Shown: positions 34,405-44,645, numbered from the stretch's first letter. The stretch is DNA of 64,000 nucleotides from Octopus vulgaris (GCA_951406725.2 OX597817.1:78678001-78742000), one strand, 5' to 3'. Notes: generated by a model not told the origin, from the letters alone. Made by a program: numbers and translations.

Positions 34405-34943
34405 TTGACTTCTGATCTTAACTGATTGGAAGTGTTATCATGTACATTGTTTTGTCTTGGTATAAAAGATGGGCTACAGCAAATATTCTGCTCAGTACCA
34501 CAGATTTGCTTGTCAGTTCTTTGACCGTAACCAGTTGAACATGTCCCTTAGTAGCTGACGATATGTGCATCTCTGATCATGAGCAGAAGTAATGGGGGAG
34601 CATCATAGCCATGTGTTGAGAGGTATTCTTTGGGGTTTAAATAATTCTCCTCTGGAAACATGGGTGTTTCGTTCAACATCCTTAAACAACCTTTATTCAA
34701 GGACTTTTTGAGCAGGATGGGTTACTCGACCTGAAGAAAATTCTACCTGGGTTCCACCTGCAAGGTTATGTGCTGTTTATCTTGATATGAGATCACCATG
34801 TCGCGCACATATGGTTGTGATGCATGTGCCTAGTGTACCCTTATCATATGGGTAGTCATGATGGGTATACTGGGCTTAATATATTTTACCCCAGTGTCAC
34901 TTTGATGGCATGCACTGCACTCTCACTCAATAATAATAATAAT
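34405..34943 (+). mobile_element. Dispersed repeat family E ending in (AAT)n (retroposon 3' end, class uncertain)
   Basis: Close inverted copy at 44085-44615; internally deleted copy at 14485-14697. Confidence 0.75.
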
Positions 34944-35479
34944 GATTGTAATAATAATATATATATAAATATATCCCCTTGATTTATTGTTTTCTTTACA
35001 AGACTTTCTGTTTTCATCCAAAATGGAGATGAACACCATTCTTCCATGTGACTGGCCTGAAAATTTCTTAGGGTATTAAGATATTATTTCTAACATGAAA
35101 CCAATGAGAGCCTTAATGCACAAATAAAGAGATTCTATTCACCAATGTGATGTTGAGCATTCATTCACATCATTCGACATCTATATATGTATGTATCTAT
35201 ACAGATTCATCTTCTCTTGCTTCTTTCTTAGCTAGATTTTTAAAGACTTATGGGAGGAAATGTCCACATCTTTTGATGGATTGTTGATGCCTGATGAACC
35301 CAGTTCAGGACAAACAGGCCAGACTGCAACAACTGCATGGGAAGGAAGGCTGGTAATATTTGGTTATAGTGTTCTTGTTATTCCTCCTTTTTCTCTTGTC
35401 TGCAAGGATGCCCCTGTGGGTATTTTTAAAGGATGTTGTTGGCTGCAGAACAGTGAGATGCCAAGTTTTACATTTAGCA

Positions 35480-38015: not shown

Positions 38016-38334
38016 CATGCTTACATATATATATATATATATATGTAATATATGTACATATGTACACACATATATATATATACATATATATATACATATA
38101 TATACATATACATACATACATGCATATATATATATGCATATATATATATAAATTATATATATATATACATGCATACATGTATATATATAAAATATATATA
38201 TACATGTATATATATATATATATACATACATGCATATATATTTACATATTGTTATCATGATCATCATTACAATCACCACCATCACCATCACCATGGTCGT
38301 CATCACCATCCTCCTCCTCCTCCTCATCATCATC

Positions 38335-38609
38335 TGTGGTTGATGAAAGGAGCACAACGGAAACAAGGAAATAGGAAACAGAGGTGCGATAAGGTCTTAC
38401 CTGACGGGGGATGAAGTCAGATGGCCTTCAGCCAACTTGCTCGCGTGTTGTCGTCTCGGGGCCTTGCTGGGGTCTGCCGTAGCCGGTCGATGCCGCACGT
38501 GCGTTGAGTCTCTCACTTCCGCTTCCGCCGGCGCATGCGCCCTGCAAGACCTGTAAGCATCACTTCCGCTCCCGCCCGTCCCGTCACACTCCTTCATCAC
38601 CACACCACA
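38335..38609 (-). repeat. 3' LTR (275 bp)
   Basis: Copy of 42322-42596, preceded on the minus strand by a purine tract. Confidence 0.95.
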
Positions 38610-38618
38610 CGCCCCCCT
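38610..38618 (-). promoter_or_regulatory. Short polypurine tract (AGGGGGGCG)
   Basis: G-run immediately upstream of the 3' LTR TG on the minus strand. Confidence 0.8.
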
Positions 38619-38645
38619 GATCTATAAATCACTGAACCAGCTTCC

Positions 38646-41576
38646 TCACTCGCTCCCGCACCCGAAACTGGTTTCATAATCAGCCAGCCAGGGAGGAGGG
38701 TGCCAGTCCCTCTGTGGTCGCAGCGCGACCCTAGGACTTGTTTCTGGTGTGTTGCTGTCGACCTCGTCATCCTGTCGGTTGTTTTCGTCCTGCCCACTGT
38801 TGCTTGTCCCATCCTCTGGGGCATGGACAATCCTCCGTATGTCCAAAACGTGGCGTGGCATACCATCGATGGAGATGTTATTTTTCGAACCTACGGAGGT
38901 TATTGTCCCCTTTCCCCATTGCGATGTACACCGTGCGTTTGGGGGTTTTACCCAGACTTCCTCCCCGACCCGCACGAAGGCGTGCTCTTCTTCTGCCCCG
39001 GGTTGCATTGATTTAGTACACGGATGCCTCCACTCGTACCTGAATATTGCTCTGTGTGGCACCGATTCCTCAGCCTGTCCGGATCGGGGAGACAAGTTGT
39101 ACCAAAAAACTGCTTCAAGCGGCGAAATGTGCCCCCTTTCCGCTATGGCCTTGACTGTCCGATGGTGCCTCTCCACGATCCCGTTACCGCCCGGCCTATA
39201 CGCTGCTCTGAACAAGCGTCGCACGTTCCACCGATCAAGCATAACCCTCAATGCTTCCGAACGAAATGCCGCCCCGTTGTCCATCAGTAGTTCTTCCACG
39301 GGACCTCTCTCTAAAAATATCCCGTTCAGGATCTGCACGATCTCGTCAGCAATGCCCGATCTCAACTCCCTCCAAATGGCCAGCCGGCCCGGCCCACAGT
39401 CGACCATGGAGAGGTACGTTCGCTGACGGTAGTGTGTCACATCCACAGCTAGCCTTTTCCAGTTCTGCTCCACGGAAAGGCTTCCCTGTTCATGCCCACA
39501 CGGAGCAGGGTCGATGGACTGACACCTGTCGCAGCTCCCGACCACCTTCCGGACGCTTCTCCTGGTCACGTCAGCATCAATCTTTTTTGCCAGATACAGG
39601 GTCCTGTCCACCCCCAGGTGATGCATAGCGTGCAATTTCTTCAGCTCGGAGTCATCCAACCGACACGCCGCAGCTATCCCTCTCCGCGCCTCCTCCGGTT
39701 CTTCCAACCACGCCCTTTTCACCCTGGTCAGTACGTCCGCCTTGTTTTTCTCCGAAGGCACGAAGACCACGTTCAGCTTGAGTCCGAATTCAGCGATCAG
39801 TTCACCTAGAACTCCTAGGCGGCGCTTCACTAACATCTCCGCAGCACCTTTCGTCCGCACTCTCCTGTCACCGGTGATCACTGATCCTACCCAGCCAAGC
39901 ACAGTGGCCGAATCCGTCCGCATTTCAATCGTGCGCAGCCCCCATTTCAAGGCCAAGTTCACCCCTTTCAGTAGCGCGTCTAGTTCGGCGACATTGATGT
40001 GGTTGAAATCATCTGCTTTCCGAAGCCAGGACGCGTCCTCCACCGCAGTGCCTTCGATTGCCAACACCACCCCTATCGCTATACTGCTAGCGTCACACCA
40101 GACAGTCCCGCATTTCGTCCTGGGCACGTACCAGTTCCCCCTGACCGGGTCTTCCGCTCTTGTCCTCTCTAGGATCTCCTGCATCATCGCCACCGTCCCT
40201 TCTCCCACCTTGTCGCCCCACCTCTCTCCTTCTGCTCGTCTCTTGGTGTAACTACACGCCGTGCGCAGCCATCCAGCGATCGGGTAGTGACCGACCAACT
40301 TCCCACACACCGAGAACAGCTCTCTCCTGCTGACGCTGGAACTCAGCTCTGGGATTTCATTTCCTCTCCGGAACACCAATTCGCCTGATCTATCTCTTCG
40401 CAGCTTCAGCCCCAGTGCGGCTCCCCCTTCAATCGACTCCGGCGGCTTAGCAATCAGTCCGAACTTCTCCAGATGTCTCACTACCTCGTCGGCTGCCACT
40501 ACAGTTTCGTCCACCAAAATGTCGTCAATGTAGGAGCTGGTGGCCTTTCTAATCTTGCCGTCTTTCCCCAGGACGGACCTAAGCACTGCCGACATGATCT
40601 TCGGAGCAGAATTCAGCCCGAAACCCAGCCTGGTTAGACAGTACGTCCGGCCCTTGTACCGCACCAGCTGATATCGCCATAGTTTGTCGCTCACATGGAG
40701 CTGCAAGTATGCCGATCTCAAGTCGACAATCGTCGCTGCCTCAGTCGACTGTCTCCACTTGCGCAATGCCTCACCACAAACGTCTGTCGCCTCACCTCCC
40801 GTGTGACACGATATGTGCTGGTTTAACTCCCTGAAGTCCAGCACCGGTCTAACTTTTCCCTTCGTAGGCTGCACCACCGCCATCAGGGGTAGCACTCCGC
40901 CCGCTACCTCCTCCTTCCAAGGGACAAGGATCCCTTCCTCGATCCACCTCTCCACCTCGTCTTCAAACTCAACCCTGGCGTGGCCTTTCAGAGTATGCTG
41001 GTAACAGCTCACCCTGTTCTCCAGTGTCGGGGGCTCGTCCTTCCATTTCCACTCTATCGTCCACCGCCGACCATCGAACGCCGCCTGAAAGTCCTTGTCC
41101 TCGATGGTGTAAGCAGCGCCGTCCCTCGCGGGGCTCTGCTCCCTCTGGTGATCCTGACTCGCAGCGCACGACGCCCCCACGCTTCCGAACGTGACCTTAT
41201 TTCCCACAACGCTGACGCCACCGAGGCAGTTGATGGCGTCCATCCCCATCACCACATCAACTCCATTTATCACGCGTTCGGCCACAATTGCCTGTAGCCT
41301 TAGCGTCGCGCCGCGCACCACTATCTCTACCGCGCTGCTGCCTCTGCAACGGATTTCGCTGCCGTCGACCGCCCGGACACTACACACCCCGTTCCATTCC
41401 TTCGTCACCCTCGAAGTCACCAGGGTGGTCGTACAGCCCGTATCCACAAGGGCCTTGAACGTCTCCCCCTCGGCCTCCACGTCGATCACTGGCAGTGTCT
41501 CCAATAGCGCCTCTACTCGTTTGAGGGGAAAGTTCGAGAGGCAGCAACTTCCCCGCGGTCGTTTCCCTGGCCGCAA
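38646..41576 (-). CDS. pol: Pol polyprotein (aspartic protease, reverse transcriptase, RNase H, DDE integrase), probably made as a Gag-Pol frameshift fusion
   Basis: LVDTGC protease; VLDFRELN, VDLRSAYLQL, GFGLNSAP and YIDD RT motifs; CDAS/HINVAELDA/TDS/NKAD RNase H; HHCC zinc finger; VDVT...MDNG-x35-E integrase triad. No stops in 976 codons. Confidence 0.96.
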   Translation of the reverse strand: MRPGKRPRGSCCLSNFPLKRVEALLETLPVIDVEAEGETFKALVDTGCTTTLVTSRVTKEWNGVCSVRAVDGSEIRCRGSSAVEIVVRGATLRLQAIVAERVINGVDVVMGMDAINCLGGVSVVGNKVTFGSVGASCAASQDHQREQSPARDGAAYTIEDKDFQAAFDGRRWTIEWKWKDEPPTLENRVSCYQHTLKGHARVEFEDEVERWIEEGILVPWKEEVAGGVLPLMAVVQPTKGKVRPVLDFRELNQHISCHTGGEATDVCGEALRKWRQSTEAATIVDLRSAYLQLHVSDKLWRYQLVRYKGRTYCLTRLGFGLNSAPKIMSAVLRSVLGKDGKIRKATSSYIDDILVDETVVAADEVVRHLEKFGLIAKPPESIEGGAALGLKLRRDRSGELVFRRGNEIPELSSSVSRRELFSVCGKLVGHYPIAGWLRTACSYTKRRAEGERWGDKVGEGTVAMMQEILERTRAEDPVRGNWYVPRTKCGTVWCDASSIAIGVVLAIEGTAVEDASWLRKADDFNHINVAELDALLKGVNLALKWGLRTIEMRTDSATVLGWVGSVITGDRRVRTKGAAEMLVKRRLGVLGELIAEFGLKLNVVFVPSEKNKADVLTRVKRAWLEEPEEARRGIAAACRLDDSELKKLHAMHHLGVDRTLYLAKKIDADVTRRSVRKVVGSCDRCQSIDPAPCGHEQGSLSVEQNWKRLAVDVTHYRQRTYLSMVDCGPGRLAIWRELRSGIADEIVQILNGIFLERGPVEELLMDNGAAFRSEALRVMLDRWNVRRLFRAAYRPGGNGIVERHHRTVKAIAERGHISPLEAVFWYNLSPRSGQAEESVPHRAIFRYEWRHPCTKSMQPGAEEEHAFVRVGEEVWVKPPNARCTSQWGKGTITSVGSKNNISIDGMPRHVLDIRRIVHAPEDGTSNSGQDENNRQDDEVDSNTPETSPRVALRPQRDWHPPPWLADYETSFGCGSE
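41509..41567 (-). promoter_or_regulatory. -1 programmed ribosomal frameshift signal (G GGA AAC plus predicted H-type pseudoknot)
   Basis: Heptamer at 41567-41561 is in the correct gag phase (CAG GGA AAC). A 6-nt spacer follows, then stem 1 GGGGAAGTT/AACTTTCCCC and stem 2 GCCTCT/AGAGGC. Pol is in the -1 frame. Confidence 0.88.
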
Positions 41577-42277
41577 TCACGGGCAATGTGCCCTGTCTGC
41601 CTGCATCGATAGCAAACTGGCCCCAGCTGCGTACAGTCCCGCGCCATGTGCGGTCCCTGGCATTTAAAACATCGTCCTGAGAACGGCCGCTCTCGTTGCA
41701 CGGTGGGCTTCCGTACCTCTTTCTCGTGACGTCGTCCGTCTTTACGCGCCTCCGTCACCGCCATCGCTACCCCCTTCCGCCCCGAGTGTCTCGTCAACCC
41801 GCGAGCATGAGTTACGAGCTCGCTCAATGGCATCTTTTTGACCCCGGGCAGTTGTTGTAGGTGAATTCCTACGTCATCGGGGAAGCCATTTACGAATGCC
41901 AGTTGGGCTGCTCTCTCCAGTCCTTCTCCAGCAAACCCGGCCAGAGTCGCTAGCCTTCTAGCTTCCGCCGCAAAATCATCTACCTGGCCTCCCGTCCACC
42001 TGATTGCACCCAGCTTAGCGAAAGCTGTGTACTCGCATTCCGTGTATGCGTCACACAAGCGCCGCTCTATATTCCCATCGCAGAGCCGTTCTTTTTCGTC
42101 CATTTCTAGGTAGAGCGACAACGCACTTCCTTCCAAATACAGGGCCATAAGACTCGCCACGTCACTTATGCCCTGCAGTCTCGCCACCAGCCTGATTTTC
42201 CGAATCCAGGCCACTACATCGCCTTCGCCGTTAAAAGATCTAACGACGTCACTGGCGATCCTAATTTTTGCCGACAT
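41513..42277 (-). CDS. gag: Gag (254 aa) with two CCHC zinc knuckles
   Basis: ATG 44 bp inside the 5' LTR boundary; FNGEGDVVAW capsid-like N-terminus; knuckles CFKCQGPHMARDC and CYRCRQTGHIARDC. Confidence 0.93.
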   Translation of the reverse strand: MSAKIRIASDVVRSFNGEGDVVAWIRKIRLVARLQGISDVASLMALYLEGSALSLYLEMDEKERLCDGNIERRLCDAYTECEYTAFAKLGAIRWTGGQVDDFAAEARRLATLAGFAGEGLERAAQLAFVNGFPDDVGIHLQQLPGVKKMPLSELVTHARGLTRHSGRKGVAMAVTEARKDGRRHEKEVRKPTVQRERPFSGRCFKCQGPHMARDCTQLGPVCYRCRQTGHIARDCGQGNDRGEVAASRTFPSNE

Positions 42278-42309
42278 CGTGTTGAAAAAAATGTGAACAC
42301 TGACTAAAT

Positions 42310-42321
42310 GCCGAAATAGCT
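42310..42321 (-). promoter_or_regulatory. Non-canonical primer-binding site AGCTATTTCGGC, complementary to nt 1-12 of tRNA-Phe(GAA)
   Basis: Plus strand reads GCCGAAATAGCT directly abutting the LTR. This equals the 5' end of vertebrate/Drosophila tRNA-Phe as I recall it (GCCGAAATAGCTCAGTTGGG). No TGG is present. Confidence 0.8.
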
Positions 42322-42596
42322 TGTGGTTGATGAAAGGAGCACAACGGAAACAAGGAAATAGGAAACAGAGGTGCGATAAGGTCTTACCTGACGGGGGATG
42401 AAGTCGGATGGCCTTCAGCCAACTTGCTCGCGTGTTGTCGTCTCGGGGCCTTGCTGGGGTCTGCCGTAGCCGGTCGATGCCGCACGTGCGTTGAGTCTCT
42501 CACTTCCACTTCCGCCGGCGCATGCGCCCTGCAAGACCTGTAAGCATCACTTCCGCTCCCGCCCGTCCCGTCACACTCCTTCATCACCACACCACA
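42322..42596 (-). repeat. 5' LTR (275 bp)
   Basis: TGTGGT...ACCACA 6-bp terminal inverted repeat; identical to 38335-38609 except at 42406 and 42508. Confidence 0.95.
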
Positions 42597-43346
42597 TCAT
42601 CATCATCATCCTCATCATCATCATCATCCTCTTCCTCCTCATCATCAGCATCATTGTCTGCACCAGCATCATCATTATCATCACCATCATAGTCATTGTT
42701 GTCATCGTCACCGTTATCATCCTCCTCATCCTCATCCTCATCATCCTCATCATCATTATCCTCATCCTCATTATCATCATCATCATTGTCAGCATCGTCA
42801 TCATCAATATCACCCTCATGATCATCATCATCCTTGTCACTATCATCATCATTATCATCACCTTCATCGTCATCGTTGTCATCGTCACCGTTATCATCCT
42901 CCTCATCCTCATTCTCATCATCATCATCATCATCCTCATCCTCATTATCATCATCATCATTGTCAGCATCGTCATCATCAATATCGCCCTCATGATGATG
43001 ATGATGATCATCATCATCGTTGTCATCATCATCATCCTCATCCTCATTATCATCATCATCATTGTCAGCATCGTCATCATCAATATCACCCTCATGATCA
43101 TCAACATCATTGTCACTATCATCATCATTATCATCACCTTCATTGTCATCGTTGTCATCGTCACCGTTATCATCCTCATCCTCATCATCATCATCATCAT
43201 CCTTATTATCATCATCATCACCCTCATCCTCATTATCATCATCATCATTGTCAGCATCGTCATCATCAATATCACCCTCATGATCATCATCATCATTGTC
43301 ACCACCATCATCATCATCATCACCATCTTTGTCATCATCATCGTTG

Positions 43347-43382: not shown

Positions 43383-44062
43383 TCCTGATCCCAAACCAAC
43401 GAAACACAAAATCAACTCACCACAGCATATAGTTTGGTATTGTACATCCTTCATAACTGTTGCAGACCTTCGTAATTGTTGCAGACCCTCTCATACTAGT
43501 GAGATTGTTATTGTTGTTGTTTAAACCTAGTTCAGCCCCATTTTGAGCACACCTATGATTGAAAGCAAACATCTCTTGACCATCTCATTGCAAATTTTTC
43601 AGGTCTTCTATTTTTTCGAGGCATGTAGTCATAGGTATTGGCTACATGGTTAAGAAGTTTACTTTGCACAGCCAGGTTTTGAGTTCGATTCAACTACAGA
43701 GTGCATGGGGTAATTGGTTTTTTCCAAGGGTTTCCAGAACTGTCAATAACTTGTGAGTCAATGCTGGTTGATGGAGACTGTAGAAAACCTGTGATATAAG
43801 TGTGTGCATATGTATGTGTGTATGCGTGTAAGTGCATGTACATGTGGAAAATGACTGTGGTGTGGACAGACGATGTTGTTTGTTGTTATTTCCTCAAGAA
43901 TGAGTCATCTGGTAGCACTGTATTTTTGAAGACAAGTGGAATGTAAACTCCCTTAGTTGTAAAACAGATAAGGTTTAGCAGCAGGGAAAGCATCCAGCTG
44001 TAAAATAATGTCTTAATACTATGCATCCATCAAACCCATGTTACCATGGAAATATAGACAAA

Positions 44063-44645
44063 TTATTATTATTATTATCATCATTATTGAGCGAGAGAGC
44101 TGTGCATACCATCAAAGTGACACTGGGGTAAAATATACAAAGCCCAGAATACCCATCATGACTACCCATATGATAAGGGTACACTAGGCACATGCATCAC
44201 AACCATGTGTGCACGACATGGTGATCTCATATCAAGATAAACAGCACATAACCTTGCAGGTTGGGCCCAGTTAGAATTTTCTTCAGGTTGAGTAACCCAT
44301 CCTGCTCAAAAGGTCCTTGAATAAGGGTTGTTTAAGGATGTTGAATGAAACACCCATGTTTCCAGAGGTGAATTATCCAAACCTCCCAGAATTCCTCTCA
44401 ACACAAGGCTATGATGCTCCCCCACTTCTTCTGCTCATGATCAGAGATACGCATATCGTCAGCCACTAAGGGACATGCTCAACTGGTTAAGGTCAAACAA
44501 CTGACAAGCAAATCTGTGGTATTGAGCAGAATATTTGCTGTAGCCCATCTTTTATACCAAGGCAAAAAATTGCACATGATAACATTTCCAATCAGTTAAG
44601 ATCAGAAGCTATGAGAGCCACTGTCTGGTACAGCATCAGGGCATC
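44063..44645 (-). mobile_element. Repeat family E, embedded in a (TAT)n tract
   Basis: Reverse complement of 34405-34943; (ATT)n on both sides. Confidence 0.75.

Follow-up and report, generated by a model that had tools for sequence, protein, structure and literature searches.

The window analyzed here is a 64,000-nt stretch of the Octopus vulgaris genome (OX597817.1:78678001-78742000) whose minus strand encodes a Pol protein with a gypsy-like domain order and with reverse transcriptase (RT) and ribonuclease H (RNase H, RH) motifs recalling the DIRS and BEL groups. The question is whether it belongs to a separate long terminal repeat (LTR) lineage, and how its reverse transcription is primed. 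Pol is encoded by an intact LTR retrotransposon, on the minus strand at 38335-42596 (4262 nt, ∼4.3 kb), that is part of a deep and widespread family. We put a probability of about 0.6 on the reading as a whole, in which this family stands outside the gypsy, DIRS-like and copia elements sampled and is likely primed by the 5′-terminal 10–12 nt of tRNA-Phe. The likeliest interpretation is a deep LTR lineage that has been overlooked, probably close to BEL/Pao and likely with a new type of primer.

Pol Protein

The 976-aa stop-to-stop frame (38646-41576) encodes protease (PR), RT, RH and integrase (IN) in that order, as the sequence-only reading had described, and every motif quoted in that reading was located in it. 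Protease and RT carried VDTG (D45), DLRSAYLQL, RLGFGL and YIDD (349-352), and RNase H carried WCDAS (D495), HINVAELDA (E531), RTDSATV (D555) and NKADVLTR (D614). These were followed by an HHCC finger (H649/H652-653, C682/C685) and the integrase catalytic residues D712, D766, and E802, in which 35 residues separate D766 from E802. The frame lacks its own start codon and shares a -1 overlap with gag.

Pfam searches matched DUF7047 at residues 416-473 (E 7e-23), with weak matches to RVT_3 (on the RNase H), protease, rve and Integrase_H2C2. At E ≤ 0.1 the window pol matched neither RVT_1, nor the gypsy RT_RNaseH, nor the BEL Peptidase_A17; the protein escapes the gypsy and BEL RNase H profiles, and even RVT_1. 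DUF7047 fills the position of the RT thumb in alignments, and for this reason no tether domain was assigned. AlphaFold models (predicted local distance difference test 78 and 86) compared with Foldseek gave an ordinary RT-thumb-RNase H fold, with the tether absent. The best template-modeling scores (0.75–0.76) were to caulimovirid RT-RH at 16–18% identity, confirming the RT/RH fold only, and no BEL or DIRS entry of the Foldseek libraries was among the matches listed.

Primer-Binding Site

Straight after the CA of the 5′ LTR comes AGCTATTTCGGC, exactly complementary to nt 1–12 of the host tRNA-Phe(GAA). The primer-binding site (PBS), which had been called unusual, is indeed so, and can be identified as the complement of a tRNA 5′ end. 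This 12-nt complement occurs once in the 4262-nt element, at the LTR junction, and its pairing with the tRNA is predicted at -18.7 kcal/mol. The tRNA-Phe 5′ 25-mer had 77 exact matches in the genome, and all five that were checked with ARAGORN were tRNA-Phe(GAA). Matches to the tRNA-Phe 5′ end also form a tandem array of ∼40 units with a 200-bp period (G000:C18:30148722-30157146) and a dispersed cluster (C6:130.88-131.01 Mb).

Twenty-five of the 54 metagenome loci of the family, a few of them near-duplicates, had a gag N-terminus with upstream DNA. The pattern AGCTAnnnCGGC lay within 120 nt of gag in 24 of these and farther upstream in the 25th; it occurred 33 times against 1.4 expected, and not once on the minus strand. 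The types were TTT (8), TCG (9), TCA (5), TCC (1), and ACA (1), with variation restricted to the partners of tRNA positions 5–7. Across 35 distinct junctions, chosen by the PBS motif itself, the unselected bases ahead of the PBS were A/C/A in 35, 33, and 35 cases. The base past the partner of tRNA nt 1 varied freely (A 18, C 7, T 6, G 4), which fits a partner RNA beginning at that point. Within the host genome, all eight sampled loci with the exact PBS were diverged family members (gag 46–85% identical). In four relatives (L051, L053, L062, and L072) an ATG lies 1–4 nt past the PBS, close to where gag is predicted to start, so that there is hardly any leader.

The degenerate PBS pattern occurred 626 times genome-wide against 90 for the control; 626 cannot be read as a copy number, since gag and pol matches were missing from all 12 of the non-TTT variants sampled, most of which belong to another repeat. 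An abundant repeat lacking gag and pol (L192-L203) holds AGCTATAYCGGC, 1–2 mismatches from the family PBS, and most of its sampled copies have the flank GACGTCACTGGTGCCA in common. Self-priming was rejected, the best complement to the PBS in the LTR reaching only 7 of 12 nt. An extended or bipartite PBS pairing with tRNA nt 13–32 beat shuffles at p ≤ 0.05 in none of 18 cases.

From this complementarity, a tRNA-Phe 5′ fragment very probably serves as primer. Part of a review on plant LTR elements distinguishes three primer types, namely whole tRNA, half tRNA and self-primer (PMC6317226), and the PBS fits none of these. A PBS matching nt 1–12 of tRNA-Phe throughout the family would make a fourth type, with a direct biochemical prediction. 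Against this, 16 of the 24 metagenome sites depart at positions 5–7 from the tRNA-Phe of the window host, and tRNAs matching the variant types were sought for the hosts concerned and not identified. The survey of the PBS consisted of the window element, same-genome loci and metagenome loci.

Proposed Priming

Pol would be produced through a -1 frameshift, as judged from the overlap with gag, a candidate slippery site (by the heptamer rule) and a predicted stem. The 12-nt PBS RNA would then invade the acceptor stem of the tRNA, displace its 3′ strand and pair with nt 1–12. Since nt 13–14 cannot pair with the CA of the LTR, the tRNA would need to be cut at about nt 10–12 before priming, and a cut at the duplex edge would leave a 3′-OH beside this terminal CA. 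The cutter would most likely be the element's own RNase H, acting as the Tf1 RNase H does on its 11-nt self-primer; in the account of Tf1, as excerpted, cleavage falls between bases 11 and 12 of the 5′-terminal RNA annealed to the PBS (PMC7175516). By this analogy, we give about even odds that the element's RNase H cuts tRNA-Phe to make the primer. Plus-strand synthesis would start from the G-rich polypurine tract (PPT), and the D,D35E integrase would insert the complementary DNA, with no obvious target preference.

Alternatively, a host nuclease may produce the tRNA-Phe 5′ fragment that serves as primer, perhaps with trimming; this possible though less favored route keeps the lineage reading and differs in one step, and the small probability left over goes to other routes. 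In its favor, 5′ tRNA fragments are common; they are, however, typically 14–16 nt long and would mismatch at the 3′ end, since the CA terminating the LTR brings pairing to a stop at nt 12. Half-tRNA primers are reported for some copia lineages in part of the literature (PMC6317226), but the geometry here resembles that excerpted for Tf1 (PMC7175516), and pairing to tRNA nt 13–32 was absent in 18 of 18 tested.

Phylogenetic Placement

References comprised gypsy rows from the host genome and from homologue searches (thinned to 8–19 per tree, a set other than that of GyDB), one intact BEL (P0442) with BEL fragments that are degenerate and single-frame, a copia row, an endogenous retrovirus, two RNases H of long interspersed elements, and eight RT-RH sequences, taken from metagenome-assembled contigs that are probably eukaryotic contaminants, which we take to be DIRS-like from their motifs and Pfam pattern. 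DIRS-like RT-RH open reading frames (ORFs) were observed in contigs of bacterial genomes and metagenome-assembled genomes (L212, L214-L217, L219-L221, and L223-L228); these contigs are probably eukaryotic contamination.

The RT-RH tree with DIRS rows separated the family (support 88/97), gypsy (99/99) and the DIRS-like rows (92/93), and joined the family with BEL (88/78). Without DIRS rows the corresponding values were 91/99 for the family and 93/94 for family plus BEL. Trees of the RT with its thumb also grouped family and BEL, at 95/94 (LG+G), 97/99 (C20), and 87/90 when DIRS rows were included. In the RH trees, gypsy formed a clade excluding the family (95/95 and 99/96). The gypsy values of 99/99 (RT-RH) and 99/96 (RH) were obtained under a site-heterogeneous model. 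Approximately unbiased (AU) tests on RT-RH rejected nesting with Mag-like gypsy (p 0.002) and with the best-scoring gypsy, P0441 (p 0.003), and on RT rejected nesting with P0134 (p 0.03).

Within the references sampled, these results bear out the proposal of a distinct lineage that is not gypsy, the gypsy clade excluding the family on both RT-RH and RH; RT, RH, and IN did not all nest strongly in a known clade with canonical priming. The family lies, with considerable confidence, outside Metaviridae, and its RT-RH module probably represents either the sister group of BEL/Pao or a basal branch of it. The label "DIRS/BEL-like" was a fair one insofar as BEL is the best sister and the DIRS-like RT-RH rows score high on the family profile, at 33–53 bits against 16–32 for six of seven gypsy rows and 36 for the seventh, the seven being those that the family profile had not picked. 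At the deep node, neither DIRS (p 0.058) nor gypsy (p 0.075) was rejected as sister.

Several results weigh against a separate lineage. Reference sampling is thin, with rows of Troyka, VIPER/TATE, caulimoviruses, and hepadnaviruses absent. Long branches meet in several trees, the family is basal and unplaced in the RH trees, and two RT-plus-thumb trees (C20; with DIRS rows) put BEL inside the family or in a polytomy with it. A sister relation was not rejected either to gypsy (AU p 0.34 and 0.075) or to DIRS (p 0.058), nor, on RT plus thumb alone, was nesting with Mag (p 0.084). Finally, the integrase tree splits the family, its compact type joining Mag-like gypsy (93/91) and its sponge-type subgroup falling near the base, with gypsy not monophyletic. 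From these sequences, integrase may have been exchanged, and that of the compact subgroup may derive from a Mag-like gypsy element; the element is possibly chimeric, because its integrase leans this way.

An unlikely alternative is that the family is a compact, divergent branch in or at the base of BEL/Pao (Belpaoviridae), which has lost the long Gag and the BEL domains and switched primer. BEL is the best sister in every RT tree and is in polytomy with the family in two, the thumb and pre-RT "P..AV..K..KVR" motifs are BEL-like, and the length of 4.26 kb falls at the low end of the range that the virus taxonomy committee (ICTV) gives. However, Peptidase_A17, DUF1759, DUF1758, and DUF5641, all four present in the BEL reference, are absent from the window pol and gag and from 14 relatives. 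Moreover, the PBS fits no 3′ end of tRNA-Arg or tRNA-Gly, the integrase groups apart from BEL, and the family stays separate in the RT-RH trees.

That the family is a rapidly evolving clade of gypsy (Metaviridae), probably close to Mag and displaced by long-branch attraction, is slightly less plausible still. This reading would have to be reconciled with the rejected RT-RH nestings (p 0.002 and 0.003), with a gypsy clade that is monophyletic without the family under a site-heterogeneous model, with the lack of any RT_RNaseH match in the window pol or in the relatives tested, and with the short terminal branches of the family. On the other hand it would account for the gypsy-like domain order, the small Gag, the integrase grouping and the Mag nesting tolerated by RT plus thumb; the top non-family profile match is also gypsy, though it was this profile that had picked the row.

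Least probable is a DIRS- or VIPER-related RT-RH module making the family an integrase-bearing link from LTR to tyrosine-recombinase retroelements: the DIRS-like profile scores, the unrejected family-DIRS grouping and the top ESM Atlas RT-RH clusters (DUF7047 excluded; 500–550-aa Euglenozoa and RVT_1-only proteins, inferred to be VIPER or DIRS) speak for it, but no tree joined family and DIRS, the RH tree put DIRS with gypsy (83/88), and the comparison was made with VIPER/TATE sequences absent. No DIRS element was found in the host genome, where recombinase matches look Crypton-like and motif matches are due to chance. Stand-alone tyrosine-recombinase ORFs (L122-L128), which are presumably Crypton-like, were observed there in several copies.

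Distribution of the Family

The sequence-only reading had called for profile searches of taxonomic range; the family occurs in sponge, nematode, sea-spider, crustacean, and cephalopod records and in aquatic metagenomes. Among 7993 candidates scored, 652 proteins belonged to the family at E ≤ 0.001, and the best 120 homologues were 49–64% identical. An exhaustive profile search gave 1318 representatives (50% identity) at E ≤ 1e-30, with fragments counted in. Named records were from Petrolisthes, Oratosquilla, Argonauta, Nymphon, Trinorchestia, Trichuris, and Sycon. The hallmark of the family is DUF7047. Among proteins of 1391–3970 aa, the RT-RH profile scored 17 members at 463–656 bits and 10 non-members at ≤67. 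The sponge-type subgroup has a single gag-pol ORF of ∼1400 aa and a longer integrase N-terminus. Scans of IMG/VR returned no family relatives or reference sequences, only one phage tRNA-Val, and a plasmid search with the RH gave nothing usable.

A highly divergent relative (L089:1-490), with family-type RNase H motifs and then integrase, is possibly an outer branch of the lineage. Four NCBI gene models (P0123, P0124, P0427, and P0429) have family pol, whole or in part, fused with other genes (Nymphon GCN2 and primase, Trinorchestia Tc1-like, Trichuris acyltransferase); these are probably annotation artefacts.

Structure and Copies of the Element

The element has the direct LTRs (275 bp, TG..CA), PBS, PPT, target-site duplication (TSD), gag, and PR/RT/RH/IN of an Ortervirales-type LTR retrotransposon, with gag and pol joined by a -1 overlap, and it lacks env (Table 1). 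The two LTRs differ at only 2 positions, and the insertion is therefore recent. Both copies of the TSD sit in a (CAT)n tract, so that the TSD at this site is ambiguous by itself.

TABLE 1. Features of the retrotransposon, in window coordinates.
Feature	Position	Strand	Remarks
5′ LTR, 275 bp, TGTGG..CCACA	42322..42596	-	2 mismatches vs 3′ LTR
Primer-binding site AGCTATTTCGGC	42310..42321	-	Adjoins LTR; exact complement of tRNA-Phe(GAA) nt 1–12
gag, ATG at 42277	41513..42277	-	Two zinc knuckles, CX2CX3HX4C and CX2CX4HX4C
gag/pol overlap, -1 frame	41513..41576	-	
Candidate slippery heptamer G GGA AAC	41567-41561	-	Inside gag/pol overlap; followed by predicted 9-bp stem
pol, 976-aa stop-to-stop frame	38646-41576	-	
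Aspartic protease (VDTG)	41232..41495	-	
Reverse transcriptase core (YIDD)	40347..41030	-	
DUF7047	40158..40331	-	Aligned to RT thumb; BEL-like "T(K/R)RELFS..WD" pattern
RNase H	39717..40115	-	D-E-D-D residues intact; LTR-retroelement type without His loop
Integrase	38832..39659	-	HHCC finger, D,D35E core, beta-rich C-terminal domain
Polypurine tract AGGGGGG	38612..38618	-	2 nt ahead of 3′ LTR
3′ LTR, 275 bp	38335..38609	-	
Target-site duplication GATGA	38330..38334	-	Second copy 42597-42601

Elsewhere in the 2.8-Gb host genome, 40 copies were scored among 224 candidates, all matching at 89–100% identity. The 20 that were retrieved comprised 11 with both LTR ends, 2 truncated copies and 7 with the internal region but without a window-type LTR; the 976-aa frame was kept open in 2 of the 20. 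All 11 two-ended copies had 5-bp TSDs of unrelated sequence, which rules out the microsatellite targeting that the (CAT)n site of the window copy had raised. The seven copies lacking the window-type LTR (L024-L030) share the internal region at 93–95%, which suggests a subfamily whose LTR was replaced. In four runs presumed to be RNA, 25–28 of 30 bins were covered by contigs mixing copies, which is no evidence either way on expression. The element is flanked by a pair of inverted repeats (547 nt, 92%) 9.1 kb apart, at 34409-34955 and 44062-44608 of the window.

Novelty and Implications

Full-text literature searches, which did not cover most subscription journals or Repbase Reports, returned no description of the family or of a tRNA-Phe 5′-end PBS, and no paper that they found mentioned DUF7047. 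Nothing on the family appears in excerpts of a mollusc LTR survey (PMC6238403) and of a BEL/Pao survey (PMC3118150). Repbase or Dfam may already contain members labeled as gypsy, and the family is likely missed by PBS finders seeking TGG. We propose only tentatively the boldest form of the reading, which is an undescribed superfamily-level lineage ranging from sponges to cephalopods and possibly protists, sister or ancestor of BEL/Pao, whose RNase H would cut tRNA-Phe after about nt 12, with the 5′ head of the tRNA then priming reverse transcription in a fourth mode. The lineage bears on the origin of BEL/Pao and on how LTR and DIRS elements have exchanged modules.

Comparison with Known Systems

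The element shares RH motifs (HI.V.EL, D....V) and RT profile similarity with the DIRS/PAT/Ngaro/VIPER group, but that group, in the passages available, uses a tyrosine recombinase (PMC6681497), whereas here there is a DDE integrase along with direct LTRs and TSDs. Membership of the DIRS order was rejected on the lack of the recombinase and the presence of this integrase, and membership of Pseudoviridae (copia) on an integrase that is not upstream of RT and on the lack of RVT_2. Troyka (Kuafuorterviruses) is likewise described, in the parts consulted, as an overlooked LTR superfamily of aquatic animals with gypsy order that had been filed as gypsy, and is mostly of a single ORF, with CG..CG ends, 3-bp TSD, I/V/LADD and CX2CX8-10HX4C (PMC12440569, PMC11673190). 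The element has TG..CA, 5-bp TSD, YIDD, CX2CX4HX4C and two ORFs, and identity with Troyka/Kuafuorterviridae, compared by description, was ruled out on termini, TSD and RT motif.

With Metaviridae (Ty3/gypsy), and Mag-like elements in particular, the element has in common the domain order, TG..CA LTRs, 5-bp TSD, gag/pol overlap and the leaning of its integrase, but its RT-RH falls outside the sampled gypsy and has no RT_RNaseH match. The Metaviridae PBS is, in the excerpt cited, complementary to a tRNA 3′ end (PMC7879559), unlike that of the element. Belpaoviridae resemble it in their PR-RT-RH-IN order, an LTR size range that includes its own, metazoan hosts, and standing as its best RT and thumb sister. 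It differs from them in lacking Peptidase_A17 and DUF1759/1758/5641, in its small Gag and in an integrase that is not BEL-like, and their PBS is 18 nt for a tRNA-Arg/Gly 3′ end (PMC8742986) against 12 nt complementary to the 5′ end of tRNA-Phe.

The closest parallels in priming come from other groups. The half-tRNA copia lineages Osser, Bryco, Gymco-II and Bianca are reported in part of one review to use a 5′ tRNA fragment as primer, obtained by cutting tRNA-Met or tRNA-Ile within the anticodon stem (PMC6317226), whereas the cut in tRNA-Phe would be at about nt 12. In Tf1/sushi elements, according to excerpts, the primer is the 5′-terminal 11–12 nt of an RNA, freed by a cut at the duplex edge (PMC7175516, PMC4600332). 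That RNA is the transcript of Tf1 itself, whereas the likely partner here is tRNA-Phe, the LTR having no complement to the PBS.

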